DNA from: Candidatus Yanofskybacteria bacterium
Lineage (GTDB): Bacteria; Patescibacteriota; Minisyncoccia; 2-02-FULL-40-12; GWA2-44-9
Reading direction: 5' to 3'
Assembly: GCA_003151795.1 (NCBI GenBank)
Contig: PLYL01000024.1
Coordinates: 4,953 to 68,952 of the forward strand
DNA length: 64,000 bases
Within the stretch, counting starts at the first letter, position 1. Each line of letters starts with the position of its first letter. This document shows, piece after piece, positions 21,950-64,000 of this stretch. The translations under genes and the position numbers were made by a program. Below the pieces are notes generated by a model. The model did no database searches. It saw only the letters and a list, made by a program, of their open reading frames with translations, and was not told the origin of the DNA.

Positions 21950-21951
21950 AT

Positions 21952-27052: not shown

Positions 27053-29000
27053 AATTATGACTACTGCACAACAACTAACAGCTATCAACTTAAGATATGG
27101 AACCGTAGCAAAGTCTTTGAAGACCCTTGCTTTTAGTGACCTTTCTGCAAAGGCATTATATTTACTAGGAAAGCCTGCCCGGTTAGATGAGGTAAGTAAG
27201 TCGGTCGCTCAAATAATTGGCGTACGCTCCTTATCAAATGATTTAGTACTTAAAGGACTTCAGGAATTAAAGAATGACCGAAAGGCAATGGTATCGAAAG
27301 ATCTTTGGGAGCTTCTTGAACAGACAAGTAAGGATATCAAAAAACAGATTGAATCTTTGGAGACGTCTCTCTTGTCTGTATTGAAGAGGAATTTTCCGGC
27401 GGATATTGAATTAAATCTTCTAACCAACTGGTTTATTGATGTCATATCCGATTTCTTCATCTATAACGGAGATGAATGGGTTCAGTCTATATGTAAAGGA
27501 TCAAGTAATTTTACAAAATTAAAAACTTTTGATGAGCTTCTGGAACCATCCATCAAAAAACATAAACTAACCCTACATATTAATGAACTAAAAAATTCTT
27601 TTAGTGGTTTCCTGAATAGCTCTAACAAAGACGATCAGTTTTATATTGTGAATATTGGCTATGCAATGTTTTCAGCTAGATTGGTTGCAGCCGATGTTGG
27701 AGCAGACCCTATTGCTTTGGAGGAGCTTCAAAATGCTAGTTTCTTTTTAGACACGAACTTTTTCTATGCTTTACAATTAGAAAAGAATCGGCTTGCCACA
27801 TCACTAGAAGCACTAGGCGAAGCTCTCAAAGAGATTGGTGCTAAATTATTTTTTATTCACGAAACCGAAGAAGAATATAAGCGTGTTTGGTCTGGAAGGA
27901 GATTAGAAGTACTGAGACTACTTGATATCTATCCCAACGATGTGGTTTCTGCCGCTGATGATAGTTTTGTTTCTACGGCTCTAGCTCGTGGTTGTTTAAA
28001 TAAATCTGATTTCGAAGTATTCTTTGATTCAGTACAGCAATTACCTCAAAAAATGGTTGAGGGACTCCCTATTACTAAAATTGATGACAAGGAGGTAAAT
28101 AAAATTGTCCTAAAAGCAAAACAAGACGGAGGATTAAAAGATTTCGTTCAGAGATGGTCTCTTAAAATGAGGCCACTTTGGAATAGACATCCAAAATCTA
28201 ACGCTGCTTTAGGGCACGATGCTTCTTTGATTATGGTCGTTGAGAGTGAAAGACAAATCGAAAAGAAGACTTTTATTCTCACACTAGATCGAAGCTTGCA
28301 AGCCTGTTGCGCAGAAAGAGCAGGTAATCATAATCTTCCAGTAGCTATTTATCTTGAAGGACTTATACAAATCCTTGCAGCAAATAACGCTGGCCCCGGT
28401 ATTGATGCTTCAAATTTCGCACCATTACTAACGAGCATAATCCTAAAGAGGTGTATCCCTCCAGAGCAAATGTATAGTCTTCAAGACTTACACTGGTTAT
28501 ATGGAATCCAGAAAAATGTTGCAAAGTTTAAGCCAAGTAAAATTAAACAAATTGCTCTTGAAGTAACAAGAGCGCGTCTTTCTGGTAAGACCGCCACCGA
28601 CGATGCCCTTCAAAGGATTGTGAATCGTTTGTATCAGGAAGAAATACAGTCTACCTCCAGAGAGGTATCTGAGGCCATGGCTAGAGCGCAATCGGCCGAA
28701 CAGGACGCTCTTAGGGAAAAGACTTTGCGTAAACAAGCAGACTCTAAATTACAAATGTATGAAAGAAAAAATAATTTACGGATTGCAAAATTTAAACTCA
28801 TTAAAACTTTGGCTTGGCGCACTCCGGTTAGCTTGGCTATAGGGTACCTTGGCTTTTATTTAGCGTCTATATCAGTTAACCAAAGTAGCCCGTTGGACAT
28901 AGTGTTGGGACTCGTAGCTTTTTTGGGGGCTTCGTATGCTATCCTGTCAAAACCAATAAAAGCGTACATGGTTGTTCGTGGAGAAAATCGGTCCTCCTAG
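27033..29000 (+). CDS. Large hypothetical protein translationally coupled to hsdR; PIN-like motif plus a C-terminal coiled coil and two transmembrane helices
   Basis: Overlaps the hsdR stop by 20 bp. A central FFLDTNFF segment resembles the PIN-domain first strand and is followed by acidic positions. A C-terminal hydrophobic pair (LAIGYLGFYLASI...LGLVAFLGASYAIL) is present. No confident family assignment. Confidence 0.35.
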   Translation: MSIYLHKIMTTAQQLTAINLRYGTVAKSLKTLAFSDLSAKALYLLGKPARLDEVSKSVAQIIGVRSLSNDLVLKGLQELKNDRKAMVSKDLWELLEQTSKDIKKQIESLETSLLSVLKRNFPADIELNLLTNWFIDVISDFFIYNGDEWVQSICKGSSNFTKLKTFDELLEPSIKKHKLTLHINELKNSFSGFLNSSNKDDQFYIVNIGYAMFSARLVAADVGADPIALEELQNASFFLDTNFFYALQLEKNRLATSLEALGEALKEIGAKLFFIHETEEEYKRVWSGRRLEVLRLLDIYPNDVVSAADDSFVSTALARGCLNKSDFEVFFDSVQQLPQKMVEGLPITKIDDKEVNKIVLKAKQDGGLKDFVQRWSLKMRPLWNRHPKSNAALGHDASLIMVVESERQIEKKTFILTLDRSLQACCAERAGNHNLPVAIYLEGLIQILAANNAGPGIDASNFAPLLTSIILKRCIPPEQMYSLQDLHWLYGIQKNVAKFKPSKIKQIALEVTRARLSGKTATDDALQRIVNRLYQEEIQSTSREVSEAMARAQSAEQDALREKTLRKQADSKLQMYERKNNLRIAKFKLIKTLAWRTPVSLAIGYLGFYLASISVNQSSPLDIVLGLVAFLGASYAILSKPIKAYMVVRGENRSS

Positions 29001-35663: not shown

Positions 35664-35991
35664 GCCCCTGTTTTAGCAAATTGGATATTTTTGTCCATAG
35701 TATCCATTTCTAGAACTCTCAGAATGTCGCTGTCGGTAACTCAGACTTCGCAAGGCCTTCAACTTAAGTTAGAGTGGACGCCAAGGTCGATAAATGGTAC
35801 AGTTTCCTTACAATTAACCGTTACCTAACCCCATCAATATCCTTGCTGGGCATGGTACAAAAACCCCGATGAAGACACTGAACCCCGCGTTCAGCAACTC
35901 TTCATCGGGTCATACCGGGAAACTGGTATGGGGCCGCAAGGCCTAGCTAATGCGGGGTTTTGTGTTTTCGCAAATCCTCGCTATATGAAAA

Positions 35992-50364: not shown

Positions 50365-51090
50365 ATGCTCCAGGATTTAAAGAAGAAAAAGTCATTGCTC
50401 GTGATTCGCAATCTGGTTATAGCCGAAGTCTTGGCCTACGGCGTGTTTATGATCGTGGCGCTTTCGGCCTATTGGGCCCAGATTTATCGGGGATTTGCCA
50501 TCTCTCGCTATCTCTCATTTACGGTGCTGGAATTTACGGGTCTGGGGATTATCCAGATTGCCATCATTGTGGCGGTAGTTACAAAATCAGTCCGCGAAGA
50601 ATCGGACATTAAAGACATCATTCGGACGGGTGAACACGAACGGCTTGAATTTAAGACGTCCCTACGCTGGGACGTGAAGCGCGACCAAGTGAATAAAGAT
50701 CTCGAACGTGGTGTAATGAAAACCATTACCGCGTTTTTGAATTCAAAGGGCGGGAACTTAGTCATTGGCGTCGACGACCACAGCCAAATCTACGGTCTTG
50801 AGTCGGACATGGCCTCGCTCGCCAAACAAAATCACGACGGGTTTGAAAACCATTTTAATAATCTTTTTGTCTCAATGATTGGCCCCGAGTTTCGCCAGTA
50901 CGTGAAACTTTCATTTCACTATATTGGCAATCAAAGCGTGAGTTTGGTGGAAGTGAAACAAGCGCATCAGCCCGCGTATTTAAAGACCGAGAAAGGAGAG
51001 GACTTCTTTATCCGCACTGGCAACGCCACGACGTCGCTCAAAGTCAGCCAAGTCGCGCCCTATATTTCTTCGCAGTGGCGCAATAACTAA
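50365..51090 (+). CDS. Membrane-anchored AlbA_2/Schlafen-type putative DNA-binding domain protein
   Basis: Two N-terminal transmembrane helices, then ERLEFKTSL...FLNSKGGNLVIGVDD, which matches the AlbA_2 (divergent AAA_4) core. Confidence 0.45.
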   Translation: MLQDLKKKKSLLVIRNLVIAEVLAYGVFMIVALSAYWAQIYRGFAISRYLSFTVLEFTGLGIIQIAIIVAVVTKSVREESDIKDIIRTGEHERLEFKTSLRWDVKRDQVNKDLERGVMKTITAFLNSKGGNLVIGVDDHSQIYGLESDMASLAKQNHDGFENHFNNLFVSMIGPEFRQYVKLSFHYIGNQSVSLVEVKQAHQPAYLKTEKGEDFFIRTGNATTSLKVSQVAPYISSQWRNN

Positions 51091-51404
51091 TAGGAGAGGA
51101 GAATACTAATTTCTGTGAGGTTCTGGCAATCAAGCTGGACCAGGCCGTCTTGATTTTCGCCGATGATAAAGCAGGAATTATCGCTTCCCGTCACTTTCAT
51201 GAGATGATTGGCAATCCACTGGCCGTGCCAAGTGATTTGGGCGGCGGAATCCGTGAGCTCCCAGTTCCCGCCGTCTTGAACGGTGGCCTGAACTTGGCCG
51301 GTATTTACTGATTCGCTGGCATGGATAAAAAAGGGCATTAAAAGGCCGATAAATAAGACCGCCAACCGGAGGTTGTGCCCAAAGAAGCACTTTCTGAACA
51401 TGTT
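51087..51404 (-). CDS. Small secreted hypothetical protein (start trimmed to the internal Met to avoid overlapping the tRNA)
   Basis: Signal-peptide-like MFRKCFFGHNLRLAVLFIGLLMPFFIHASE; the longer ORF as called would run into the tRNA at 51516. Confidence 0.3.
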   Translation of the reverse strand, partial: NMFRKCFFGHNLRLAVLFIGLLMPFFIHASESVNTGQVQATVQDGGNWELTDSAAQITWHGQWIANHLMKVTGSDNSCFIIGENQDGLVQLDCQNLTEISILLSY

Positions 51405-51515
51405 GCATATTATACACGAGTACCAATTAAAAGTCAAGTCAAGACTTGGGAGGAGTTTTTGACGGTTGAGTTTGTTGGTATATTTTGTTACTATACATAA
51501 ACAATTGAATATTAT

Positions 51516-51790
51516 TCCGCGGTAGCTCAATGGTAGAGCGGCGCCCTGTAGACAAAACTTGCAGCTCTTTGAGGAAACTCAAGGATGAACTTTTCGGGAT
51601 AACGGTGAAAGCTACGTCGAAAGATATGCTAATACCGTGGGAACTTCAGCCAGTGCTGGAGAGCGCCGTAGAGACTAGATACCGAAGATCCGTAATGAGA
51701 AATCAACGGATAAGATATAGTCCACCCCATATCGAAAGCTATGGATTATGTGTAAGGCGATGGTTCCAGGTTCGAGTCCTGGCCGCGGAG
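51516..51790 (+). tRNA. tRNA-Asn(GUU) interrupted by a roughly 203-nt group I intron (intron about 51550-51752), copy 1
   Basis: Exons: TCCGCGGTAGCTCAATGGTAGAGCGGCGCCCTGT plus TAAGGCGATGGTTCCAGGTTCGAGTCCTGGCCGCGGAG, giving anticodon loop CUGUUAA and G73. The intron carries the group I P7 S-element AAGATATAGTCC and the R-like GAGACTAGATA. A P1 pairing of exon CUGU with intron GCAG is possible, with U-G at the splice site. Confidence 0.6.
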
Positions 51791-51796
51791 CAAACG

Positions 51797-51830
51797 AAAA
51801 AATCCTGATTTTATCAGGATTTTTTCTTGG
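51797..51830 (+). terminator. Intrinsic terminator after the tRNA
   Basis: aaaaaatcctgat / atcaggatttttt perfect hairpin followed by a T-run. Confidence 0.6.
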
Positions 51831-51878
51831 ACGGCAAATGGACTTTAGAACCAGAAACGAGTAAAATGAGGTAAAATC

Positions 51879-52748
51879 ATGAAAACAAAATTCATAAGAC
51901 TTACAACTAAAGATGACCTGATTTTACAAGGATTTATATATTCTCCAGAACAGGAAACTAAAAAGGCATACCTCCACATCCATGGAATGGGTGGTAATTT
52001 CTATGAGAACCGGTTCTTAGATTTCATGGCCGAAGGCATCACAAATGCAGGCTATACATTCATGGCTATTAATACCCGTGGTCACGATATGATTGCGGAT
52101 TTTCCTCTAGCCGGATCCGAGGAAAAATATAAGCGAATTGGAGTTGCCTATGAGAAGTTCGAAGAATGCGTACTCGATATTAAATCAGCCATCGATTATT
52201 TGGAGAAAGAAAGATATTCAGAAATTGTTCTCTGTGGTCACAGTCTCGGAACATCTAAGGTTGGATACTATGTTGCAACTACACAAGATAAGAGGGTGCA
52301 AAAACTAGTCCTTATGTCTCCATCAGACATGGTGGGTCTCGCTGAAGCCGAAAAGTATCATGCAGGATTATTAGCCGAAGCGAAACAAATGGTGGCCGAA
52401 GGTAAAGGTAGTGACTTACTCTCAACAAAAATCTGGGACTGGTATTTCTTGTCTGCCGAGACATATGTTGATTTAAGTTCTCGTGATTATCCAGTCGACG
52501 TGTTTAATACCTACGACAAGGCAAAGCCGTCAGCTTTAGAAAAAATCACAATTCCAACCCTCGCCTTTTTTGGAGAGAACGATGACTCGGCGATACTTGG
52601 GAGCAAAGAAGAGTCGTTAGAAGTAATAAAATCAAAAGCTCCTAATGCTCCACGTTTTGATCTCGATGTTATTCCAGGCGCATCGCATGGTTATTTTGGT
52701 AAAGAAAAAGAAATGACGGCAGTAATTGTTAACTGGCTTAATAAGTAA
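51879..52748 (+). CDS. Alpha/beta-fold hydrolase
   Basis: Nucleophile elbow GHSLG, an HGMGGN oxyanion region, and a C-terminal His (ASHGYF). Confidence 0.6.
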   Translation: MKTKFIRLTTKDDLILQGFIYSPEQETKKAYLHIHGMGGNFYENRFLDFMAEGITNAGYTFMAINTRGHDMIADFPLAGSEEKYKRIGVAYEKFEECVLDIKSAIDYLEKERYSEIVLCGHSLGTSKVGYYVATTQDKRVQKLVLMSPSDMVGLAEAEKYHAGLLAEAKQMVAEGKGSDLLSTKIWDWYFLSAETYVDLSSRDYPVDVFNTYDKAKPSALEKITIPTLAFFGENDDSAILGSKEESLEVIKSKAPNAPRFDLDVIPGASHGYFGKEKEMTAVIVNWLNK

Positions 52749-53071
52749 TGAATACTGAAACGGTAAAAATTGTGGTCTTTGTTCCAGAGAGTCATGCTGA
52801 TGCCGTAAGAAAGGCTGTCGGCGATGCTGGAGCTGGTAAAATTGGAAACTATAGCCATTGTTCATTCTCATCGAAAGGGCAAGGTCGTTTCCTGCCATTG
52901 CCAGGAACGAATCCAACTATCGGACAAGTTGGGAAACCAGAAACTGTTGAAGAAGAAAGGATTGAGTTTGTCTGTGAAAGATCCTTGTTAAAGAAAGTAA
53001 TCGAGGCAATGAAGAAAACACATCCGTACGAAGAGGTGGCTTTTGATGTTTATCCATTAGAAAATTTATGA
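52748..53071 (+). CDS. Small conserved hypothetical protein
   Basis: 107 aa; the start codon overlaps the upstream stop. Confidence 0.3.
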   Translation: MNTETVKIVVFVPESHADAVRKAVGDAGAGKIGNYSHCSFSSKGQGRFLPLPGTNPTIGQVGKPETVEEERIEFVCERSLLKKVIEAMKKTHPYEEVAFDVYPLENL

Positions 53072-54363
53072 CCGAATCTATGCCCACAAGTGATGATCTA
53101 ATGCTCCAAATGTCTCCTTGGGATTTTGACCAAACATTAAACGGCGGCTGGAGAATATATGAGGATAGCGACCCTCTTCGGGCCGCTCAACTTATTCAAA
53201 AATACATTGTTCAGAATCGGGAACGTATTTTAAATCCAAAAGAAGGAGAGAGGGAGATAGAACTTAGAGTGATGTATTTTCATATTGGTCAGAATCTACT
53301 CTTTGCAGGACAAGAACATTATCTCGAAGCAATAGGTGCACTCAAGCAATCCTTTGAGGAAGGACATGAGTGTTGGAATGCCTACGTCTCTGCCACTATA
53401 GGGTTTTTAGAAAATGACATTCAAAGAATTGATGGTGCTATTAATACTATTGAACAGTCTCAAGAGTATAAAGAAGATTCACGAAGTGGGAATCTTCACA
53501 TCGTTAAAAACTTTAAGAAAGCTTTAAAATCAGGCGAGTATGATTACAAAGAGGTGTATCTAAAGAAAGAGATTAAACAAGTCGGTGATTACGTTTCCGT
53601 AAACGAGCAGGGTTATTTAGTTAACAATCTAAAGCTCGAGAGTATTCAAGAAAAATGGAAGCCAGTAGTTGAAGACGTTATTAATGAATTTAAAAAACAT
53701 TTTGGCGATAAGTTAATCGCGGTATATGTTCGGGGATCTGTGGCGGCTGGCCGGGCGGTAGATGGGATTTCTGATGTAGATGATACCGCAATAGTAGATC
53801 TACCTGAGGATCAAATTGATGTGAGCTGGAGACAGGATTTTCATAAAGCCATGAAAGAAAAGTACCCGTTCGTTTATGCCCTTGAAGGTAATGTTGATTC
53901 GTTCGATTCAATTAAAAAAAGTGCTAACCACGGATTATTTTTAAAAACTCAATCATTACGAGTATACGGACAAGATCTTGCGAGCGAGCTTCCTGAGTTT
54001 GAATTGGGCAGAAATACGGTAGCTCATGCTTTCTCAATCAAAAAGAACATTGACGCTGCTCAACAATTTATTCTAGAACAGAAAGACAATCCTGAACGAA
54101 TCAAAAGACGGTGCACGGTTATAATGAAAAGAATTGTCCGATCGGGGTTTGAGCTAGTGATGGAGCGATCTCATAAATACACGAGAGACTTATATTTGTG
54201 CTGGCAAGAGTTTTCCAAATATTATCCTGAAAAATCAGATATCATGAAAAAGGTGATGGAACTGGGTATTTACCCAACATCTGATGTGAGCGAGATTCAG
54301 GAAGTTTTAGGTGACTTAGGTCCTTGGCTAGACGAAGAAGTTAAAAAAGTTTTTCCCAAATAA
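53068..54363 (+). CDS. Nucleotidyltransferase-domain protein (ANT/Pol-beta-like core with an extra N-terminal domain)
   Basis: VYVRGSVAAGRAVDGISDVDDTAIVD carries the GS..x..DxD nucleotidyltransferase signature. Confidence 0.45.
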   Translation: MTESMPTSDDLMLQMSPWDFDQTLNGGWRIYEDSDPLRAAQLIQKYIVQNRERILNPKEGEREIELRVMYFHIGQNLLFAGQEHYLEAIGALKQSFEEGHECWNAYVSATIGFLENDIQRIDGAINTIEQSQEYKEDSRSGNLHIVKNFKKALKSGEYDYKEVYLKKEIKQVGDYVSVNEQGYLVNNLKLESIQEKWKPVVEDVINEFKKHFGDKLIAVYVRGSVAAGRAVDGISDVDDTAIVDLPEDQIDVSWRQDFHKAMKEKYPFVYALEGNVDSFDSIKKSANHGLFLKTQSLRVYGQDLASELPEFELGRNTVAHAFSIKKNIDAAQQFILEQKDNPERIKRRCTVIMKRIVRSGFELVMERSHKYTRDLYLCWQEFSKYYPEKSDIMKKVMELGIYPTSDVSEIQEVLGDLGPWLDEEVKKVFPK

Positions 54364-54684
54364 ATGAAGCCTCTTAAATTCAAACATGAATTCGTAAAGG
54401 AAATTCTCAAGAGTAAAAAGACTACCATATGGCGTTTGTTTGATGACAAGAATCTTCGCAAAGGAGACGAGCTAGATCTCATTGATCGAGATTCAGAAGA
54501 GAGTTTCGGGAAAGCAAAGATTTTAGATGTCGAGAAAAAGAAAATCAAAGAGCTAACCGACTTTGAACTCAAGAACCACGACTATACGAGCTTGGGCGAT
54601 ATGATCGACAGCCACCGAGTATATTATGGCAGTAAAGTAAATCTTCAAACCGAAGTTAAGATAATTAAATTTAAACTCCTGTGA
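54364..54684 (+). CDS. ASCH/PUA-like domain protein
   Basis: 106 aa; N-terminal KFKHEFVKEILKSKKTTIWR is typical of ASCH. Confidence 0.4.
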   Translation: MKPLKFKHEFVKEILKSKKTTIWRLFDDKNLRKGDELDLIDRDSEESFGKAKILDVEKKKIKELTDFELKNHDYTSLGDMIDSHRVYYGSKVNLQTEVKIIKFKLL

Positions 54685-55088
54685 AGCAACGAGTATCTGC
54701 AGTAATCATAAGTGATAACAAGATTCTTCTCATTAAACGGGTGAAGCCCGACCAGGAATATTACACGCTTCCAGGCGGCACTGTTGAGGAGGGCGAAACT
54801 ATAGAGAGAGCGATGTACCGAGAATTTAAAGAAGAATTAAGCGCTACTCCTAAGATCGGGAAGCTCCTCTTTGAGACTAGTAGTGAAGGTAGAAAAGATT
54901 ATTATTTTGAGATAGACGAAACCTTAGGTGTTCCTAAAATAGGTGGTCCAGAACTCCAGAGGATGAATGCCGACAATCAATATATTCTGACTTGGGTTGA
55001 ATTTGAGGACTTTAAAAATCTTGCTGGCTTCTATCCTAATCCGCCAGGGACAAAAGAGAAACTCATTGCTATATGGCCGCACCCATAA
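54681..55088 (+). CDS. NUDIX hydrolase
   Basis: Nudix box GGTVEEGETIERAMYREFKEELS. Confidence 0.75.
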   Translation: MKQRVSAVIISDNKILLIKRVKPDQEYYTLPGGTVEEGETIERAMYREFKEELSATPKIGKLLFETSSEGRKDYYFEIDETLGVPKIGGPELQRMNADNQYILTWVEFEDFKNLAGFYPNPPGTKEKLIAIWPHP

Positions 55089-55675
55089 CTCACATCGTAT
55101 TGGCCAATAAAATATTTAAAGATTTACCGAATATTTCTCGGAAAGAATTTTTTGTTGGGACTAGCTTCCCCGACATTAGATACATAAGAGTTATTGACCG
55201 AGACAAAACTCATGTGAAAGATGTTTCTCTAGAGAATATCAAAAACGAGTCTAGTTTTAAGGCGGGGTTTCTTCTACACTCTCTGGTAGACAAATTGCGG
55301 GAAGATTATCTCGATAAAAACGGCTTGTATAATCTAATCCCTAAATCTGGACTTGCCATGCAAGCCGTAAAGTTATTTGAGGATAAAATACTGTATGATA
55401 AATTGTCTGACTGGAGTTTTGTCGCCGATTATTTTAAAGACATTCTACCAGAAGAGAGTGAGTTTCCAATCCAAAAACAAGATATTTCTAAATGGCACAA
55501 AATATTGAGTGATTACCTTGCACAAAAACCTAGCCCGGAAAGTAGAGCACCGTTTTTTAAGGAACTCTACTTTACTGATGAGCAGACAAAACAAATCGAA
55601 CTGCTTATAAAAGAAATGGAGAGTAAACCGGAACTTATTGATCTGATCCAAAGCTTTTACCAAAATATACTATGA
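55073..55675 (+). CDS. Hypothetical protein
   Basis: 200-aa ORF overlapping neighbours at both ends. Confidence 0.3.
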   Translation: MAAPITHIVLANKIFKDLPNISRKEFFVGTSFPDIRYIRVIDRDKTHVKDVSLENIKNESSFKAGFLLHSLVDKLREDYLDKNGLYNLIPKSGLAMQAVKLFEDKILYDKLSDWSFVADYFKDILPEESEFPIQKQDISKWHKILSDYLAQKPSPESRAPFFKELYFTDEQTKQIELLIKEMESKPELIDLIQSFYQNIL

Positions 55676-56055
55676 AAACAATACTAGTTGATGCCGTATA
55701 TACCTTTGTATCTGACCAAGGAGTAATTTTCCAAGAGATGTTTGATTTGCTTGAGAAGTATCCAAACAAGAAAATTATCCTCACCAACGCCGGTGATGAT
55801 AAGTGGCAACAATACGGCTTAGATAAAATGCCCTACGAAGTATTCACACTGAAGCATAATCCGGATAAGCCAGATCCAACATATTTTCAAAAACTTCTTA
55901 AGCACTTCAGCCTTACGGATAATGACGTCGTCTATTTTGAGCACAGCCCAGAAGCAGTCAAGAGTGCTGAATCGGTAGGCATAAAGTCTTATCATTACGA
56001 CGAGAATAAGAAAGACCTAGCGGCTTTAAAAAACTTCTTAGATCAAAACTTATGA
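55672..56055 (+). CDS. Hypothetical protein (possible HAD-like)
   Basis: 127 aa; the N-terminal KTILVDAVYTF resembles HAD motif I only weakly. Confidence 0.25.
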   Translation: MKTILVDAVYTFVSDQGVIFQEMFDLLEKYPNKKIILTNAGDDKWQQYGLDKMPYEVFTLKHNPDKPDPTYFQKLLKHFSLTDNDVVYFEHSPEAVKSAESVGIKSYHYDENKKDLAALKNFLDQNL

Positions 56056-56444
56056 TCGAAATTAAACCTGACCACCAATGCGTGATGAGAGTAGTCGAAG
56101 GATCACTGACTGATAAGTCTTGCATTGCAGGCTTTCCACAAAAAGTTCTACAAATATTTGCTGACGATGCCAACTGGAATCAGTTACTTGAAATAAGTGT
56201 GCCATTTAGTCAGATTAAAGAGATTCAAAAAGCTATGATTAAGCATTATGACACCTCAGCTCCGTGGTACACTGACGGTTGGCTCGCAAACGACAAGAAT
56301 ACAATCATTTGTGCTTTCGGAGCGGACGATGGCGAGAATGGTAAAATATTTGTTTTCAAGCGAGATGATAAGCAGACTTACCAAGAAATAACTGATTACG
56401 CTGTTTCAAAAGGTATCCCTAAAGAACAAGTAGATTTTCTATAA
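56052..56444 (+). CDS. Hypothetical protein
   Basis: 130-aa ORF in the overlapping gene chain. Confidence 0.3.
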   Translation: MIEIKPDHQCVMRVVEGSLTDKSCIAGFPQKVLQIFADDANWNQLLEISVPFSQIKEIQKAMIKHYDTSAPWYTDGWLANDKNTIICAFGADDGENGKIFVFKRDDKQTYQEITDYAVSKGIPKEQVDFL

Positions 56445-56448
56445 ATCA

Positions 56449-56895
56449 ATGGAAATTACTTTCCAAAAAGCAACTCTCGACGATGTAGACAAGTTTGTTG
56501 AAATTGAGAAAACCTCGGCCGGATTGAACCTGTATTCTTCAATGACTGACCCTGCAGAAGCTAAAGAAGAAATAGAAAATAACGAAGTTTATTTTATCAA
56601 AAAGGACAATGATATTGTCGGAACTACCGAGTATCAGATAAAAAGTCCCGACGAAGCCTATTTAGGTGGCTTGCTTATCAAGCCAGAGTTTCGAGGCCAA
56701 GGTATTGCCCGTAGGGCCATAGAATTTCGGCTCGATAAACTGAAAGGGATTAAACGACTTTGGCTAGTCACACATCCGCACAACAGCAAGATGATTCGTA
56801 TGTATCTTTCCTACGGGTTTATTATTGAGGCCTGGAAGGATAATTATTATGGAGATGATCAACCGAGGCTTGTTTTAAGTCGAGAGACAAAATAG
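56449..56895 (+). CDS. GNAT family N-acetyltransferase
   Basis: Acetyl-CoA-binding motif RGQGIARRAIEF. Confidence 0.65.
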   Translation: MEITFQKATLDDVDKFVEIEKTSAGLNLYSSMTDPAEAKEEIENNEVYFIKKDNDIVGTTEYQIKSPDEAYLGGLLIKPEFRGQGIARRAIEFRLDKLKGIKRLWLVTHPHNSKMIRMYLSYGFIIEAWKDNYYGDDQPRLVLSRETK

Positions 56896-56897
56896 CG

Positions 56898-57110
56898 ATG
56901 CTCCCACCCGAAGCCATCAAAGAATTCAAAGGATTGTATAAGAAACGCTTCGACAAAAAGCTTTCAAATGAGAATGCTTCAAGACGAACCAACAACCTCG
57001 TTAATCTATACAAGATTGTTTACACTCCCTTACCAGAAACTGAAGAATCAAAAGCGAGAGTAGATAGGGCTTACGACATATTATTTGAAGAAGTAGCTAA
57101 GAAAATATAA
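56898..57110 (+). CDS. Hypothetical small protein
   Basis: 70-aa ORF. Confidence 0.25.
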   Translation: MLPPEAIKEFKGLYKKRFDKKLSNENASRRTNNLVNLYKIVYTPLPETEESKARVDRAYDILFEEVAKKI

Positions 57111-57117
57111 CACGCAT

Positions 57118-57903
57118 ATGGACACCTCACTTTTATTACCCCGCGAACAATACGAAGAAGCTAAAAAGAAATGGGGCACTGCGCCGTTCACACTTGAAAT
57201 TAGGAATGACCATCAATGCCTATTTTATTTCGGTGCTAATCATTCTCACGATCCTGCCAACCATCAATATCCTATTTTACGAGAATACTGGAAAAAATTT
57301 TTGAATGAAACGGAAGGTAAAGAAAGGATTGTAATGGTGGAAGGTGGTATACGGCAAGTTACTAAAAGAGAAGAAAGTGCTATTAAGCACGGTTCGGAAG
57401 GTTCGCTTATAACATTTTGGGCGCATCCGCTCGGTCTTCAAATTGTTTCTCCGGATATTAAAGACAGCGAACTTTTAAAACTGCTTCCAAATAATTCCAA
57501 AGAAGAAACGCTACTCTATTGGTTTTTAAGTTATGTCGATCATTGGAAACATCATGCCGAGCCAATACCTGATTTTGAAAGCTATATTGCTAAATGGTCA
57601 GAATGGCAGACGCATAATGTCATGTGGGCAGGCATAGATGTTTCTTTGGGTAATTTAAAACGGTTGTACAAAGAAATCATCGGAAAAGAGTTTGATAAGG
57701 ACGATAATTTCAATAACATGGTCAATCCCAACCGAGACGACACTAAGATAAATAAAATTGCGCGTTCACAAAGCGATCTCCGAGATGCCAATGTCGCCTC
57801 CGAGATTGTCCGCTATTGGCAAGAAGGTAAGAGTATTTTTGTCGCCTTTGGTAACGGTCATCTCATCATAGAAGAGCCAGCTCTTCGGAAATTACTCAAA
57901 TAA
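57118..57903 (+). CDS. Hypothetical protein
   Basis: 261-aa ORF; no motif recognised. Confidence 0.3.
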   Translation: MDTSLLLPREQYEEAKKKWGTAPFTLEIRNDHQCLFYFGANHSHDPANHQYPILREYWKKFLNETEGKERIVMVEGGIRQVTKREESAIKHGSEGSLITFWAHPLGLQIVSPDIKDSELLKLLPNNSKEETLLYWFLSYVDHWKHHAEPIPDFESYIAKWSEWQTHNVMWAGIDVSLGNLKRLYKEIIGKEFDKDDNFNNMVNPNRDDTKINKIARSQSDLRDANVASEIVRYWQEGKSIFVAFGNGHLIIEEPALRKLLK

Positions 57904-57946
57904 AAACGATGAAGCCCGCGGAGGACCGTGGGTCCATCGCGGGCTG

Positions 57947-58243
57947 TTATCCCTTGGATAGTTCTTCGAATTCACCGAGCGGACGAATCTCGTCGGGAAC
58001 GGTGAATGTGCTTCCCTCGTGCCGCACGCCGTTGATGACCTTGCGGATGTAGCCACCGCTGATGTCCCAACCGTGCTTCTTAAAGTAGCGATACGGGTTC
58101 TCAGTGGCTTCTTCGTCGAGAGGGCCGTAAAATTGCGGGGGCGGATTGGGATCCTCGGTTCTTGGTTTCTCGCCTTCGAGAACTTCTTCTCGACTTCCGG
58201 TCCCGATCTGCGTGATCGGTTCAATCGTCAAATACATAGGCAC
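57947..58243 (-). CDS. Hypothetical protein
   Basis: 98-aa ORF on the opposite strand. Confidence 0.3.
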   Translation of the reverse strand: MPMYLTIEPITQIGTGSREEVLEGEKPRTEDPNPPPQFYGPLDEEATENPYRYFKKHGWDISGGYIRKVINGVRHEGSTFTVPDEIRPLGEFEELSKG

Positions 58244-58420
58244 TTCATACCTCCAGTACCCTTATAATATCATGGATTTCGATGGTTGACAAGACCATCA
58301 AAAAGGAGTATAATTGAGAGGTAAGCTAATTCCTACCTGTATGGGTAGGTGGCTCCCAAGAGCAACGAGGCTTTGTTTCCTACCTCGCCCAAAGGAAATG
58401 TTCATTCACAGGAGAGTCGT

Positions 58421-58855
58421 ATGACTCAAGACAAGCTGTCGTTCAACGTCACCGGTGGCCCCAGCAAGTTCGACCTGATGCTCTCGCTCTTCGATGGGAA
58501 CAAAGACCCCCGTCGGACAGTCGAGTTCCAGCTCGAAGGAGCGCGTGGCCCCGTCACCGTTGGTATCACGGCGGTCCAGCAGGAAGACGGTTCTGGCGAA
58601 AGCTGGAACGTCGAAGGTTGGATCACCAACTACCGCCGCAACTTCAACATCAAGGCGTACTACTCGAGCAACAGCCGCAAGGGCTACCTCACGTTCATCG
58701 TCCCGTTCCACTACGAGATGAGGGGCAACGAGCGTCACAAGATCGAGACGCCCGCCAATCAGCTCGAGATGGCCGACTACATCGACTGGTTGCGAGGCAA
58801 GGGCACCGGCTGGCCGATCCCGAGCGCGCACGTCTATACGACGCATCGCGGATAG
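58421..58855 (+). CDS. Hypothetical protein encoded by a strongly high-GC gene (foreign composition)
   Basis: A good RBS (caggagagtcgtATG) makes this the preferred start inside ORF 58349-58855. GC is visibly about 60% against about 40% in the flanks, with GC3-rich codons throughout. Confidence 0.45.
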   Translation: MTQDKLSFNVTGGPSKFDLMLSLFDGNKDPRRTVEFQLEGARGPVTVGITAVQQEDGSGESWNVEGWITNYRRNFNIKAYYSSNSRKGYLTFIVPFHYEMRGNERHKIETPANQLEMADYIDWLRGKGTGWPIPSAHVYTTHRG

Positions 58856-59150
58856 GCTGACAACAGCCCCGACAGAGAGTCCCGTGCAGAAATGCACGAT
58901 CCTCTGTACGGGGCTCTTTAATTACAAAAAATATCATTGCGTCGCAAAATACTAAGGACAGAAACAGGAATCATTTGGAACTGAACTAATACTCAAGCAA
59001 AATTCGGTTCAAGACCTGTTGCGGGTAGGGCTAAATTGGACAAAAAGTAGGATTCGACACAGAACCGCAGAAATCAAAATCCCAGAGGTTATCTAGGATT
59101 TTGATTCGAGAGAGGGACGGAGGCAGGTCTGAACACACCAGAATGGCCGC

Positions 59151-59430
59151 CTCCGCGGCCAGGACTCGAACCTGGAACCATCGCCTTACACTTAATCCAT
59201 AGCTTTCGTTACGGCGTGGACTATATCTTTCCCGAGACTTTCGTCTGGCGGGATTTCGGTATCTAGTCTCTACGGTGCCCCCGCCAAGGCGGGGTTCCCT
59301 CGGTATTACCCGTTCGCTTTACGCGAGTGTGGGCTTCACCGATATCCCGAAAAGTTCATCCCTAGCTTTCACTAGAGAGCTGCAAGTTTGTCGTTTACAG
59401 GGCGCCGCTCTACCATTGAGCTACCGCGGA
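59151..59430 (-). tRNA. tRNA-Asn(GUU) with a roughly 208-nt group I intron, copy 2 (inverted relative to copy 1)
   Basis: Exons identical to copy 1. The intron has diverged but keeps GATGAACTTTTCGGGATA, CCGTAGAGACTAGATACCGAA and the S-element GATATAGTCCAC. Confidence 0.6.
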
Positions 59431-59583
59431 ACGCATTAATGGAACCTGAAACTACAGACCTATATTATCAGAGAAAACCAAGGACTTCAAATCATCATAT
59501 TCTAATCCCGAAGCGAGCTTTATTAAGGGCAACGGGAAACGCTTTTGAATTATAATTAAATATAAGATGTCCACTATAAATAC

Positions 59584-59619
59584 TTGACATATTTATAAGG
59601 GCGTAATACCCTTATAAAT
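59584..59619 (+). promoter_or_regulatory. Putative promoter with a palindromic operator-like element upstream of the 77-aa gene
   Basis: TTGACA at 59584-59589. A 9-bp perfect inverted repeat (atttataag ... cttataaat) is centred about 15 bp before the ATG at 59620. Confidence 0.3.
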
Positions 59620-59853
59620 ATGGATAAGATAATTCCAACAAACGAACATCCGCGAAATCGTTTCAAACGACTCGCTACTGCTCGGACAAATATAGTTCTA
59701 AAACGTCTTAAAGTTTTAGGGAATTGTTCTAACCGTAATATATACGAATACGAGGAACAGGACATTGATAAGATTTTCTCCGAGATAGAACGCAAGGTTA
59801 AGGAAACCAAGGCAAAATTCCACTTCCCCAAAAAGCGTGAGTTTAAACTATGA
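59620..59853 (+). CDS. Small basic hypothetical protein (possible regulator)
   Basis: 77 aa; overlaps the start of the downstream GHKL gene by 4 bp. Confidence 0.35.
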   Translation: MDKIIPTNEHPRNRFKRLATARTNIVLKRLKVLGNCSNRNIYEYEEQDIDKIFSEIERKVKETKAKFHFPKKREFKL

Positions 59854-62207
59854 AAGACGACGACATAATAAAATTAACACTCGCTCTTGTTAAATCGGAA
59901 ACCGAAAAAGAGGTCGTTCAAGTTTTGAGTAGCTTTAATCTTTGGGAAAACAAAAATGTATGGAAAGAATTTGATGAGAGTTCCGGGAATTGGTCAACTA
60001 TTGGTAATCAGCAGAGTGCGCCTGATACAGCCCTTGTTGAAAAAATAATCAATTCTGTTGATGCGGTACTTATGAAAGAATGTTTGAAAGATGGTATACA
60101 ACCAGAAAGCGAGAATGCTCCCCAAAGTATTGCAGAAGCTCAAAAGAAATACTTCGGAATTTATAATGGTAAACTTTCGAGTATTGATGCGAATAACAGA
60201 ACAAAAATTGCCGAAAATATTTTTCTTGTTGCAACTGGTAGTAAAAACAACCCGTCCTATTCAATAATTGATTTTGGGGAAGGTCAATCACCCGAATCTT
60301 TTCCTACTACATTTTTATCACTTAATAAGGGTAATAAAAATAAGGTCCAATTTGTTCAAGGTAAATTCGGAATGGGCGGGACAGGGGTCTTTAGGTTCGG
60401 AAGCCCGGAGCACAATCTTCAGTTGATAATTTCTAAAAGAAATAAAGAAATTAAATCAGAAACAAAAAATGATCAATGGGGCATGACCGTCATAAGACGT
60501 GTCCCACCCACCGGCCAAATGAAGAGTTCAATTTTTACCTATCTTGCTCCAGAGGGTAAAATTCTTTCTTTTGTTTCTCCGTCCCTACGTCTTTTACCAG
60601 GTAAACACCCTAAAGCATATTCCGAACCATTAGAATGCGGTTCATTTATAAAAATTTATGAATACAATCTCGCCGGCTTAAAAAGTAACGTACGATTTGA
60701 TTTGTTTTATCGCTTATCGTTATTACTACCAAACATAGCGTTGCCGATTACTCTTTGTGAGCGACGGGATTATAGCGATAAAGAAGGTAAAACAAGGGAT
60801 ATGAAAATTGTTATGTCGGGACTTAGTGTGCGTCTCGACGAGGACAAAAGAGATAATCTTGAAGATGATTTTCCAAGCACAGGAGAATTAAATGTAAAAA
60901 ATCAAAAAATGGATTATTCAATTTACGCTTTTCGGAAAGATAAACGAAGAACATATTCCGGAAATGAGGGAATTGTATTTACGGTAAATGGCCAAGCTCA
61001 TGGGTTTTTGCCGAAATCTTTCTTTGAGCGTAAGTCAGTCGGCATGTCCTATCTCGCGGATAGCATTCTCATACTCATTGACTGTTCAAAAATTGAAAAA
61101 AGAAAACAAGAGGATTTATTTATGAATAGTCGCGATCGTCTTAGCGGTGGACCACTTCAAGATGAAATAGAGCAACAATTAGAAGATATAATCAAAAACC
61201 ATCAAGGCCTTCGGGCGTTAAGAGAAAAGAGGAGGAGAGAAGATATTGAAAATAAATTACAAGATTCAAGGCCTTTGGCAGATGTTCTGGAAAATATTAT
61301 TAAAAAATCTCCCTCCCTCTCGAGTCTTTTTGCACAAGGAGTAAGAATCAAAAATCCTTTTAACTTTGCTGGTGTTACTGAAAAAGGAAAATTTGAAGGG
61401 AAAGAATTTCCTACATATTTTGATTTGGTTAAAAAATATACTAGAGAAAAACCAAAACTTTGTCCTATCAACAATAGAAGGTTTAGGATTCAATACGAGA
61501 CTGATGCTGAAAATGATTATTTTAACCGTGATAAAGAACCAGGCGGATTAACTTTAAAGATAAATGAAAATTCTATTGAAGATTATTCGCTTAATTTATG
61601 GAACGGGCTAGCTACATTGAATATTGACCTCCCGGATAGCGTAAAAATTGGGGAAGTACTGTGCCTTAAAACAGAGGTCGTAGATATTTCAAGAATAGAG
61701 CCTTTTTTAAATGAATTTTATATAAAAATTGAAGAACAACAGGAAAAGAGTGGGGGTAAGAATGGTGAAAGAAAAAAACCGTCTGGTAAGGAAAGAGGAG
61801 AGGACCGACAAAAGCCAACCTATCTTGATATTCCTAACGCATGGGAGATAAGAAGAAATGAATGGGGGAAACATAATTTTGATGAAAAGAGTGCCCTAAA
61901 AGTGGTAGATGCAGGAGAAGAAACTGGGTATGATTTCTATATCAATATGGACAATGTTTATCTTCAGATGGAAATCAAGGAAAATATTAAAATTGACCCA
62001 AAACTTTTGGAAGCAAGATTTAAATATGGGATGGTTTTACTAGGTATATCATTACTTGATTTTGAAGAAAAAAGGAAAAAGGGAGGAAAAGAGACTCCAC
62101 AGGACAATAATGACGCATCTATTTTTGAACAAATTTCTCAATTTTCAAAAGCAATTTCTCCAACCTTACTTCCAATGATTTCTTCTCTTGGAGATTTGGA
62201 GATTTAA
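59850..62207 (+). CDS. Large GHKL-superfamily ATPase protein (MORC/MutL/Hsp90-like Bergerat fold), 785 aa
   Basis: N-box LVEKIINSVDAV, G1 box IIDFGEGQSP, G2 box GKFGMGGTGVFRFGS, and a long C-terminal extension with a Lys/Glu-rich tract. Confidence 0.55.
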   Translation: MKDDDIIKLTLALVKSETEKEVVQVLSSFNLWENKNVWKEFDESSGNWSTIGNQQSAPDTALVEKIINSVDAVLMKECLKDGIQPESENAPQSIAEAQKKYFGIYNGKLSSIDANNRTKIAENIFLVATGSKNNPSYSIIDFGEGQSPESFPTTFLSLNKGNKNKVQFVQGKFGMGGTGVFRFGSPEHNLQLIISKRNKEIKSETKNDQWGMTVIRRVPPTGQMKSSIFTYLAPEGKILSFVSPSLRLLPGKHPKAYSEPLECGSFIKIYEYNLAGLKSNVRFDLFYRLSLLLPNIALPITLCERRDYSDKEGKTRDMKIVMSGLSVRLDEDKRDNLEDDFPSTGELNVKNQKMDYSIYAFRKDKRRTYSGNEGIVFTVNGQAHGFLPKSFFERKSVGMSYLADSILILIDCSKIEKRKQEDLFMNSRDRLSGGPLQDEIEQQLEDIIKNHQGLRALREKRRREDIENKLQDSRPLADVLENIIKKSPSLSSLFAQGVRIKNPFNFAGVTEKGKFEGKEFPTYFDLVKKYTREKPKLCPINNRRFRIQYETDAENDYFNRDKEPGGLTLKINENSIEDYSLNLWNGLATLNIDLPDSVKIGEVLCLKTEVVDISRIEPFLNEFYIKIEEQQEKSGGKNGERKKPSGKERGEDRQKPTYLDIPNAWEIRRNEWGKHNFDEKSALKVVDAGEETGYDFYINMDNVYLQMEIKENIKIDPKLLEARFKYGMVLLGISLLDFEEKRKKGGKETPQDNNDASIFEQISQFSKAISPTLLPMISSLGDLEI

Positions 62208-62363
62208 TCATAATCATGTTGATTTTCTTCCAGTGGCCGGATAAAATGAAGAAAGGTAAGAGGTCAGACCCCTTTTTATGGCGTCTCATTTTGCCGAGTA
62301 TCACCGACCTGTAGGTATCCAAATCTGGAGATGAGGCAAAATTATTGAAGCCGTCTTAAAATT

Positions 62364-62963
62364 ATGACTAAAAAATTCACCTTGTTTTTAACTGCTCAGG
62401 ACACAGAATTTCTCCATGATGTTGCGATAGTTATTAATACAAAGGATAAAAGTTATGAAATAAATATGGATCCTCAAAAAAAGAAATCGGAAGACCCTGG
62501 GTGGTGGTACTTGCAGGCATATGGATTCTATTCAACTTTTAAAATTCTTCTTGATTTATTTAAATCAAGTCCTTCAAAAAGTTTTATTGGTACATCAGCC
62601 GTATATACCTTAGGAATTGCTACAGAGCTTTATCTAAAAACATTTTTACTAATTAGTGGGTATCCATATCAAGATGTGATTAATTTCAAACATGATTTAA
62701 AAAATTTAAGATTAGAATGTCATAAAATTGATACAAACTTTGATAATTCTGACCTAATTTTTATTACTGATAACCTTGGCTCAGTTATTATGGATAACGG
62801 AGGGATAAGATATCCAGTCAATTCTAAAAGTGCAGCTGTAGCTGACCCCATAATGATAGATGCAATATCATGGCTAGATTCTTACGTAAGACTATTAATT
62901 TCTATTGAAACAAAAAATACTGGTGGGCTAGAATATATTAGTATGAAGCCTGTTTTAAAATAG
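62364..62963 (+). CDS. Hypothetical protein (gene bracketed by a 28-bp direct repeat)
   Basis: 199-aa ORF with no confident motif. A HEPN-type call was considered but not supported. Confidence 0.3.
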   Translation: MTKKFTLFLTAQDTEFLHDVAIVINTKDKSYEINMDPQKKKSEDPGWWYLQAYGFYSTFKILLDLFKSSPSKSFIGTSAVYTLGIATELYLKTFLLISGYPYQDVINFKHDLKNLRLECHKIDTNFDNSDLIFITDNLGSVIMDNGGIRYPVNSKSAAVADPIMIDAISWLDSYVRLLISIETKNTGGLEYISMKPVLK

Positions 62964-63044
62964 AGTATCACCGATTTATAGGCATCCGAACTACGATCGC
63001 TGGAAAGCCCTTGAAATTGGCTAGTTTTTTGCTAGGATGAAAAT

Positions 63045-63767
63045 ATGATTGACGAGCAAATAAAAGAACAGGCCATAGAATTTGCTAAGAAAAACAAACT
63101 TAAGATTGCTAAAGAAATAGCCAGTTTCGATGTTTATAAACCTGAGGTCACTCCAATTTCTGTGTTTATGGCAGGTTCGCCGGGTGCTGGTAAAACGGAG
63201 TTTTCTAAAGAACTTATTCGTATTTTGGAATCGGACGGTACTGAACGGAGAGTAATTAGAATTGATGCCGATGAAATCAGACCAATATTGCCAGGGTATA
63301 CAGGAAATAATTCTTATTTATTTCAATACCCGGTTTCTTTAGTCGTAGAGAAGGTTCATGACTTAGCGTTGCACAATAAACAGAGCTTTATTTTAGATAC
63401 AACTTTTGCCAATCCAGAGAAAGCAAGATATAATGTTGGCAGGTCTCTTGATAAAGAACGTCCTGTTTATATCTTCTATCTTTATCAAAAACCGGAAGTT
63501 GCGTGGAAATTTACAAAAGCTCGCGAAGAAATAGAGGGTCGTCAAATACCGCGGCAGGCCTTTATAGAGGAATTTGTCGGGGCAAGAGAAGCGATAAATG
63601 CTATGTTAGAAAAATATAATGACAATATTACCGTCTTTCTGGTTGTAAAAGATTTTGAAAAAAATACTGTTAATGATATTATTCCCATACTTGGAGGAGG
63701 AGTGAATGTTGACGAATATTTGCCGAAAGTGTATAGTAGAGATGAATTAGATAAAATAATATTATGA
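63045..63767 (+). CDS. Zeta-toxin-family P-loop kinase
   Basis: Walker A FMAGSPGAGKTEFSKEL and the size and layout of zeta/PezT-type toxins (RIDADEIR downstream). Confidence 0.55.
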   Translation: MIDEQIKEQAIEFAKKNKLKIAKEIASFDVYKPEVTPISVFMAGSPGAGKTEFSKELIRILESDGTERRVIRIDADEIRPILPGYTGNNSYLFQYPVSLVVEKVHDLALHNKQSFILDTTFANPEKARYNVGRSLDKERPVYIFYLYQKPEVAWKFTKAREEIEGRQIPRQAFIEEFVGAREAINAMLEKYNDNITVFLVVKDFEKNTVNDIIPILGGGVNVDEYLPKVYSRDELDKIIL

Positions 63768-63943
63768 AATTAAATATTTTAAAAACAAAAAAAGATCTTA
63801 AAAAACCAGGGAAGTTTGCCGATTTCTTTTTAAACGCTTCTGAAAATAAAAAGAAACAAATAATCAGACAAGCTGCCGAACGGGCCAACAAAGACCAGTA
63901 CGAGGTATTTATAAAGTCTCGGGTTGGCACAAAAACTCCCTAA
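63764..63943 (+). CDS. Small Lys-rich hypothetical protein overlapping the kinase stop (ATGA)
   Basis: 59-aa ORF translationally coupled to the zeta-like gene; read directly from the sequence, not in the ORF track. Confidence 0.2.
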   Translation: MKLNILKTKKDLKKPGKFADFFLNASENKKKQIIRQAAERANKDQYEVFIKSRVGTKTP

Positions 63944-64000
63944 GTTCAATAACTATAAAAGCCCCATGGTGGGGCTTTTATAGTTATTGAAAACCCTTGA

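Follow-up and report, generated by a model that had tools for sequence, protein, structure and literature searches.

Introduction

The classic group I introns of bacterial tRNA genes belong to subgroup IC3 and are found in tRNA-Ile(CAU) of Azoarcus, in tRNA-Leu(UAA) of cyanobacteria and plastids, and in tRNA-fMet. Here, we describe two tRNA-Asn(GUU) genes interrupted by group I introns, copy A and copy B, that face each other in a 64,000-nucleotide (nt) stretch of contig PLYL01000024.1 from a Candidatus Yanofskybacteria bacterium; this whole stretch is called the window below. The introns of A and B are like the classic ones in length (~200-250 nt), in being of a self-splicing class, in their location in the anticodon loop, in the GAAA loops of helices P2 and P9, and in their P7 core sequences, and copy A also shows likeness in a P5 motif that resembles a tetraloop receptor. 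The classic introns differ in their insertion sites (33/34, 34/35, or 36/37 versus 35/36), in their host tRNAs, and in the phyla that carry them.

Introns at 35/36 of Patescibacteria tRNAs form a class of their own (Nakagawa et al., mSystems 2026; PMC13011429), which was first described in 2025-26 and is hence already known; A and B are new members of it. Host tRNA, insertion site, phylum, and boundaries (CUGU/...G/, with a slash at each splice site) are the same, as is the fact that standard annotation overlooks the genes. An endonuclease gene is absent from A and B, as it is from most published members; versions bearing an HNH endonuclease exist within the phylum (PMC13011429). Self-splicing in vitro, with the ligated exons sequenced at 35/36, has been reported for the tRNA-Asn intron of GCA_016700035.1 and the tRNA-Asp intron of GCA_001029755.1, and published genes were missed, or miscalled as Thr(UGU) with a 33/34 insertion, by ARAGORN and tFind (PMC13011429). 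Table S3 of that work holds ~200-nt introns of Paceibacteria and Doudnabacteria. The core GGGAUAWCGGUGAA, CCGUAGAGACUAGAUACC, and AAGAUAUAGUCCAC is common to A, B, and published members, all of which align together; its published carriers include the tRNA-Asn of GCA_030583765.1, the tRNA-Asp of GCA_023898525.1, and the tRNA-Tyr of GCA_016699995.1 (PMC13011429). The present locus departs from the published description in other respects. One intron-bearing tRNA-Asn is listed per genome, and tRNA-Asn is single-copy in the majority of Patescibacteria genomes (PMC13011429, Tables 1 and S2), whereas here there are two, convergent and kept in a relative. Little horizontal movement is inferred for the class (PMC13011429), whereas here an intron body has been swapped at one locus. 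Finally, the published work places Patescibacteria tRNA introns in subgroup IA, whereas A and B, at ~205 nt, leave no space between P7 and P3' for P7.1 and P7.2, as read from their sequences.

The other known system that invites comparison is the genomic island integrated at a tRNA gene. As in such islands, variable accessory genes lie directly 3' of the tRNA, a partial repeat of the tRNA 3' end that is like an attachment site (att) is seen in a close strain (L120), and a recombinase family recurs beside tRNA-Asn. In contrast to such islands, a whole tRNA gene in inverted orientation forms the far boundary here in place of a direct partial repeat, no integrase lies inside, and the associated enzymes are large serine recombinases in inverted repeats of their own, not tyrosine integrases. 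A genomic-island test, which asks for an integrase inside and, at the far boundary, for the tRNA 3' end repeated in direct orientation, was negative for the block in the window.

Results

Copies A and B are very probably two functional, separately transcribed tRNA-Asn(GUU) genes with compact, endonuclease-free group I introns, with the splicing route and history proposed under Discussion; the reading is drawn from sequence. They lie at 51516-51790 (+) and 59430-59151 (-), with inserts of 203 and 208 nt (Table 1), just as an earlier note on this DNA had described. The exons of the two copies are identical (34/34 and 38/38) and join to 72 nt, which ARAGORN calls as tRNA-Asn(GTT), with a cloverleaf, the 7-nt loop CUGUUAA, and discriminator G73, in agreement with the identity given in that note. 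Anticodon-stem pair 27-43 is a G·A mismatch in both copies, and both introns are inserted between anticodon positions 35 and 36. Of 200 aligned intron positions, 148 (74%) match, and the alignment contains 11 gap columns; this likeness depends on the method (71.5% in a multiple alignment, 0.80-0.86 pairwise), and the MAFFT pairwise figure of 74% is the one adopted here. At the intron rate, the absence of any difference among 72 exon positions would have a probability of ~0.74^72, or roughly 4e-10. Beyond tRNA positions 1 and 73, where identity between A and B stops precisely, the two copies have unrelated flanks. Viewed as an inverted repeat, the pair measures 283 nt at 83% overall, with perfect stretches of 34 and 38 nt within it.

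In default mode, ARAGORN detects neither tRNA-Asn copy in the window, and in intron mode it detects both. The Asn boundary was chosen because the U·G wobble ends P1 (CUGU with GCAG) at 35/36 only and homologues splice there. The Thr(UGU) boundary at 33/34 was rejected, as it would make the splice-site pair U-A instead of U·G, and sequencing of spliced homologues in the literature put the junction at 35/36. A chimeric assembly was likewise considered and dismissed, since window positions 45970-64000, both tRNA copies included, recur with 100% identity in an ENA contig and the diverged relative L125 has the pair independently.

Both inserts match the Rfam model Intron_gpI (RF00028) at model positions 1-253 (scores in Table 1; E-values are from local 501-nt searches). 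The match to this model that the earlier note had proposed to look for was thus obtained, over the full model, for both introns, but the scores, 46.6 and 36.6 bits, lie under the gathering cut-off of 50 bits; a scan of the whole window at threshold gave no match at the locus, and standard annotation therefore overlooks both introns. Introns of relatives at the same locus (L125 copy 1 and L126) pass the cut-off at 60 bits. The two P7 strands singled out in the note are present in both inserts, AAGATATAGTCC at 51712-51723 (A) and 59218-59229 (B) and the 18-nt core CCGTAGAGACTAGATACC at 51666-51683 (A) and 59258-59275 (B). The catalytic-core strings GUAGAGACUAGAUACC and AAGAUAUAGUCC also occur in A and B, and P3, P4, P6, and P7 pair in both. 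The P1 helix that the note had drawn from exon CUGU and intron GCAG stands as well: the guide lies at 51561-51564 (A) and 59380-59383 (B), a U·G pair falls at the splice site, the intron ends in G (51752 in A), and the fold is kept by compensatory changes. Splice boundaries read CUGU/A...UUGCAG and ...GUG/UAAGG in both copies. The Rfam match stops at GCUAUGG, 8 nt before the sole 3' splice site that restores the tRNA (...AUUAUGUG/UAAGG), and the short tail after P9 is common to all family members and to the published spliced homologues.

P2 and P9 have GAAA loops in both copies, and both introns have the P3-P8 core. P5 is receptor-like in A (GCUACG with UAUGC) and of another type in B (GCCC with GGGU), and P6a has been rewritten (CUUCAGC with GCUGGAG versus CCCCGC with GCGGGG). 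Comparison of A with B gives eight double compensatory pairs (four in P2, one in P4, one in P5, and two in P8), and the core helices are all intact. Neither intron has room for an endonuclease gene. With this anatomy, A and B look like working ribozymes.

A scan for CCGTAGAGACTAGATACC with one genome per species detects this compact family of introns at a minimum of 119 genome loci, nearly all in metagenome-assembled Patescibacteria. Among the matches listed, the host tRNAs are Asn (at least 38), Asp (at least 30), and Tyr (at least 19), all interrupted at 35/36 after CUGU according to a splice-site parser that demands GCAG after the 5' splice site, which makes the universality of GCAG partly circular. 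A structure based on copy A, which spans P1-P9 and treats P7 as a pseudoknot, was tested on 58 aligned members. Paired cells amount to 92.9%, versus 34-43% with slid partners; cells with double changes number 445 versus 58-100, with 26-27 pairs showing such changes; and the covariation score is 0.402 versus at most 0.11. RNAalifold, run independently, recovered P1, P2, P3, P4, P5, P6, P8, and P9 as well as the anticodon stem that encloses the intron. This covariation strongly supports the group I fold. No second tRNA copy and no exon repeats were found in the at least 119 genome loci, each of which was a fixed 8-kb chunk. Genome REEB12 (L071, L072) has family introns within tRNA-Asn and also within tRNA-Asp, on separate contigs. 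The same 18-nt core is also seen within ~210-nt introns in viral tRNA arrays on IMG/VR contigs of 60-485 kb (L131, L132, L134, L135, and L136), where ARAGORN names the hosts as Ile-UAU, Leu-UAA, Gln, and a suppressor-like tRNA; large viruses are possible carriers of the intron family.

The convergent pair occurs in L125, a 79-kb contig of a diverged relative, where the copies are 4.7 kb apart and have introns of 182 and 238 nt. The 3' flanks of both L125 copies are homologous to those of the window (95% and 84%), and its cargo is unrelated to that of the window (a P-type ATPase, a glycosyltransferase, and one unknown). In the close strain L120, whose contig starts and ends within the last 30 nt of two inverted 3' exons, the pair is probably present too. 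The first four block genes are shared with L120 at 96.7% identity and are followed there by an open reading frame (ORF) of 1740 amino acids (aa) in place of the remainder. After the 3' end of copy A, L120 carries a 414-nt insert with a 73-aa ORF (L120 1-460), whose last part repeats the tRNA 3' end at 13/17 positions (GCGTCCTGTAGGCGGAG) before the window's post-tRNA sequence resumes; this partial repeat looks like an integration (attachment-site) scar. The bookends and 3' flanks are thus kept in L125 and L120 and the genes between them differ, and the pair is therefore older than its present cargo. The synteny comparison outlined in the earlier note accordingly gives no support to that note's own suggestion that the block had been inserted together with a duplicated tRNA.

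Five metagenome loci have exons 72/72 identical to those of the window at 73% identity in rpoD DNA and 76% in the Schlafen-like gene. With the pair also present in L125, this upholds the view of the earlier note that the intron divergence is old and the exons are under selection. The identity of the A and B exons is accounted for by the strong purifying selection seen across the clade, with nothing further needed. A and B are sisters in a neighbor-joining tree and share the P1/P10 segment CAAACUUGCAG; the intron of L127 is A-like (89%), and that of L125 copy 2 is B-like (79%). The genes dnaG-rpoD lie directly upstream of an intron-bearing tRNA-Asn in more than 20 Patescibacteria loci by tblastn (for example L048, L082, L113, L066, L007, and L127), and because this order is widespread, copy A is taken as ancestral and B as the extra copy. 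In the window, rpoD and the tRNA are separated by two additional genes (169 aa and a Schlafen AlbA_2 protein; 49803-51090). The RpoD protein shares 86% identity with its counterpart in Ca. Paceibacterota SMAG_U8203, and the foreign tRNA exons nearest to those of the window, with a difference of one compensated pair, belong to a Ca. Paceibacteria genome. The RpoD match and an intron family almost confined to Patescibacteria agree with the earlier assignment of the window to a host like those of the candidate phyla radiation.

At locus A, the window, L127, L126, and L125 share an identical 5' exon and an identical stretch from AUAGUCCACCCCAUAUCGAAAGCUAUGGAUUAUGUG to the end of the tRNA, and the intron body between these identical stretches is of two unrelated types. 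A foreign body is carried at this locus by L123-L126; in the chimeric introns of L125 (541-795), L126 (2156-2430), and L123 (1822-2076), the body begins GGCUAAUUCGGGGAAACC... and P9 with the 3' end is that of intron A. The L125/L126 type scores above the Rfam cut-off and is similar to a tRNA-Asp intron of Microgenomatia with splicing shown in vitro. By their sequences, these loci record a swap of intron bodies that broke close to the 3' strand of P7 and took place without an endonuclease gene.

The DNA between the two copies is composite: an operon of small enzymes at a guanine-plus-cytosine content (GC) of 0.39 and a separate gene pair at GC 0.55. The operon runs in the order alpha/beta hydrolase, 107 aa, 431 aa, ASCH, NUDIX, 200 aa, HAD-like, 130 aa, GNAT, 70 aa, and 261 aa. 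The description of the block in the earlier note as low-GC DNA with small enzyme genes holds for this part and not for the last ~1 kb (57947-58855), which is the separate pair. That pair is absent from L120 and has divergent sigma-70 promoters at 58264-58314, one matching the consensus at 12/12 positions (TTGACA-17-TATAAT) and its partner at 10/12. Domain scans of the block (51.8-59.1 kb) gave no recombinase, phage, or defense matches, and PADLOC and NCBIfam scans of the block and its flanks returned nothing informative.

Table 1. Features of the tRNA-Asn locus and its surroundings in the window
Feature	Position	Strand	Basis and remarks
dnaG-rpoD, upstream neighbors of copy A	46609-49759	+	Synteny, >20 loci
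Promoter-like site 5' of copy A	51459-51486	+	TTGACG-16-TATTTT; consensus match only
Copy A 5' exon	51516-51549	+	tRNA positions 1-35, 3' end CUGU; same as copy B
Copy A intron, group I	51550-51752	+	203 nt; RF00028 46.6 bits, E 8e-11; helix analysis
Copy A 3' exon	51753-51790	+	Positions 36-73, discriminator G, no CCA encoded
Perfect A/T-flanked hairpin AAAAAATCCTGATTTTATCAGGATTTTTT after copy A	51796-51826		Likely two-way terminator; 95% conserved in L125
Low-GC (0.39) co-directional block	51879-57903	+	Gene calls, domain scans
GC 0.55 divergent gene pair, function unassigned	57947-58855		98 aa (-), 144 aa (+)
Hairpin and T-run after copy B	59071-59107	-	Likely terminator; kept in L120 and L125
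Copy B 3' exon	59188-59151	-	Parsed from sequence
Copy B intron, group I	59396-59189	-	208 nt; RF00028 36.6 bits, E 8e-8
Copy B 5' exon	59430-59397	-	Parsed from sequence
Promoter-like site 5' of copy B	59499-59526	-	TTAATA-16-TAGAAT; consensus match only
Large serine recombinase, 510 aa	42395-43927 (gene), within 42395-44033	-	Resolvase, Recombinase, and Zn_ribbon_recom domains

The large serine recombinase of the window is bracketed by inverted repeats of 85 nt (42460-42544 and 43949-44033). The C-terminal coding sequence of the enzyme contains one of them; behind the second, a similar alternative tail (...ADPDLRSETLFEKLR...) continues in frame, so that inversion would yield a complete recombinase gene on the opposite strand. 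Homologues flanked by repeats adjoin the 3' end of tRNA-Asn, in convergent orientation, in L007, L012, L020, L049, L066, L113, and L127, and L123-L125 instead have a homologue on the upstream side of the tRNA. Among the matches listed, such cassettes stand beside the tRNA in ~8/45 Asn loci versus 0/49 Asp and Tyr loci (p = 0.002). The contig ends just past the cassette in four of these tRNA-Asn loci. A search of the cassettes' far inverted repeat for remnants of tRNA yielded none. The distribution suggests recombinase-driven traffic at tRNA-Asn; such traffic may explain the turnover of cargo and perhaps the origin of the inverted duplication, the link to the window locus being one that we infer. 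Next to the recombinase, a 1.7-kb segment between 201-nt inverted repeats (44065-44265 and 45970-46170; 99.5% identical) holds ORFs of 57 aa, 72 aa (HTH_3), 210 aa, and 170/175 aa (44065-46170), and it appears in the opposite orientation in ENA contig ERZ27254241:k141_2878319. The segment is either a genuine DNA switch or a case of ambiguous assembly at a repeat that exceeds k in length.

Other island-like DNA lies in and near the window. The right flank of copy B (59620-64000) is an island at GC 0.35 with a zeta-toxin kinase and unknowns of 77, 785, and 199 aa, and an rve integrase and an IS1595 transposase follow just beyond the window end (L121 16647-19486). A stretch at GC 0.37-0.42 (20168-29000) carries type I restriction-modification genes (hsdM, 20168-21949; hsdR, 24029-27052). 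A LOOT RNA (RF03000; 86.6 bits, well over the cut-off) is found at 35822-35944, just downstream of a tRNA-Phe/tRNA-Arg pair.

Discussion

We propose that the precursor RNA of each copy would fold into P1-P9 and that the guide 5'-GCAG would pair with exon CUGU, leaving a U·G pair at the 5' splice site for attack by guanosine. The terminal G of ...GUG would then enter the P7 site, and the exons would be ligated, with the P1-loop CUU able to hold the AAG of the 3' exon (P10). The product would be a 72-nt tRNA to which CCA is added after transcription. This route is deduced from the anatomy of A and B and follows that of homologues spliced in vitro. With regard to history, copy A, downstream of dnaG-rpoD, would be the ancestral gene, and copy B would stem from an old inverted duplication that took place before the L125 lineage split off. 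The exons would since have been frozen by purifying selection as the outer helices P2, P5, P6, and P8 were rewritten by compensatory changes, and in one related lineage another type of intron would have taken the place of the body of intron A. The stretch between the two tRNA 3' ends would be a hotspot of gene turnover, not a unit that arrived with copy B.

Several observations weigh against this account. Both introns score below the Rfam cut-off despite covering the full length of the model. The contig of L120 ends inside the exons, so that its two tRNA copies are inferred and not seen whole, and the case for copy B and L125 copy 2 as orthologs is built on ~430 nt at 84% identity. The grouping of A and B as sisters has a bootstrap value of only 27.5%, and their P5 architectures differ. 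The tally of tRNA-Asn genes refers to the window, and a third, intron-less copy elsewhere in the genome is possible.

The weak grouping and the two P5 types could also be read as a sign that the introns were acquired independently, with a second intron lineage entering copy B or copy A by homing or by recombination with foreign DNA. Two identical tRNA-Asn genes would then have existed beforehand (or one with an intron and one without), and the difference between the introns would reflect different sources, not an old duplication. Replacement of an intron at the same locus does occur, given the unrelated body in L123-L126, HNH-endonuclease versions are present in the phylum (PMC13011429), and in the multiple alignment A is 72-76% identical to foreign tRNA-Tyr introns and 71.5% identical to B. 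We nevertheless judge this history to be quite improbable. The tree does place A and B together, albeit with weak support; their similarity in pairwise alignment, 0.80 of length, is among the highest of any pair, with ~0.65-0.72 for most; they have the lineage-specific segments ACAAACUUGCAGCUCU, GGAUGAACUUUUCGGGAUA, and GAAAGCUAUGGAUUA in common; and the B-like intron of L125 copy 2 (79%) and the A-like intron of L127 (89%) fit two old orthologous loci. It is also conceivable that one of the two genes, most likely B, is decaying as a pseudogene or results from faulty assembly, as the 36.6 bits of copy B and the single tRNA-Asn of most Patescibacteria genomes (PMC13011429) might imply. The exons of B are intact and identical to those of A, however, its core helices all pair with changes that are compensatory and not disruptive, it has its own promoter-like site and likely terminator, its locus is kept in L125 with intact exons, and the ENA contig shows the same arrangement, all of which makes this explanation extremely unlikely.

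The convergent arrangement leads to a further alternative, that of an invertible or mobile cassette in which the inverted tRNA copies flip the block, or in which a site-specific recombinase loads cargo at the tRNA-Asn 3' ends. The perfect 34- and 38-nt inverted identities within 283 nt at 83%, the three cargo sets between conserved bookends, and the 13/17 repeat of the tRNA 3' end beyond the 414-nt insert of L120, with its resemblance to an att scar, could all be accommodated, as could the bias of serine recombinase cassettes toward Asn loci among the matches listed and the presence in the window of such a recombinase 7.6 kb away, together with an apparently invertible segment. Flipping of the block is mechanistically possible. 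On the other hand, no recombinase gene lies in or beside the block within the window, the cargo breakpoints between the window and L120 fall inside the block and not at the tRNAs, and identities of 34-38 nt are near the lower limit for recombination of the RecA type. No flipped form of the block was seen: exact matches to block and flank proteins gave the same arrangement, and a contig with those proteins (L121/L122) keeps the same block order, in a look-up that merges similar places and with short-read contigs that miss minor forms, so that flips could be hidden; two further contigs were listed as similar. Taken together, a cassette of this kind seems unlikely to us. The preferred reading of two functional genes, one ancestral and one duplicated, could be extended in a related direction: the convergent pair might be a conserved landing pad, with cargo exchange driven or seeded by serine recombinases that target tRNA-Asn and that also move endonuclease-free introns. 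We offer this extension tentatively and consider it doubtful; if true, it would contradict the published view of these introns as essentially immobile.

Overall, default tRNA and Rfam pipelines miss both genes, and the organism would seem to be without tRNA-Asn; such apparent loss would therefore distort completeness estimates for bacteria with small genomes. What the locus adds to the known class is a genome with two intron-bearing copies of one tRNA, a pair that is conserved with cargo that differs by strain, and exons that stay constant while introns diverge fast among relatives. It also adds direct evidence, read from aligned loci, that replacement of an endonuclease-free tRNA intron can take place at one and the same locus in related genomes, and a tRNA-Asn neighborhood with quick gene turnover that often holds serine recombinase cassettes. 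These are incremental leads on DNA exchange in reduced genomes and not a new kind of system.

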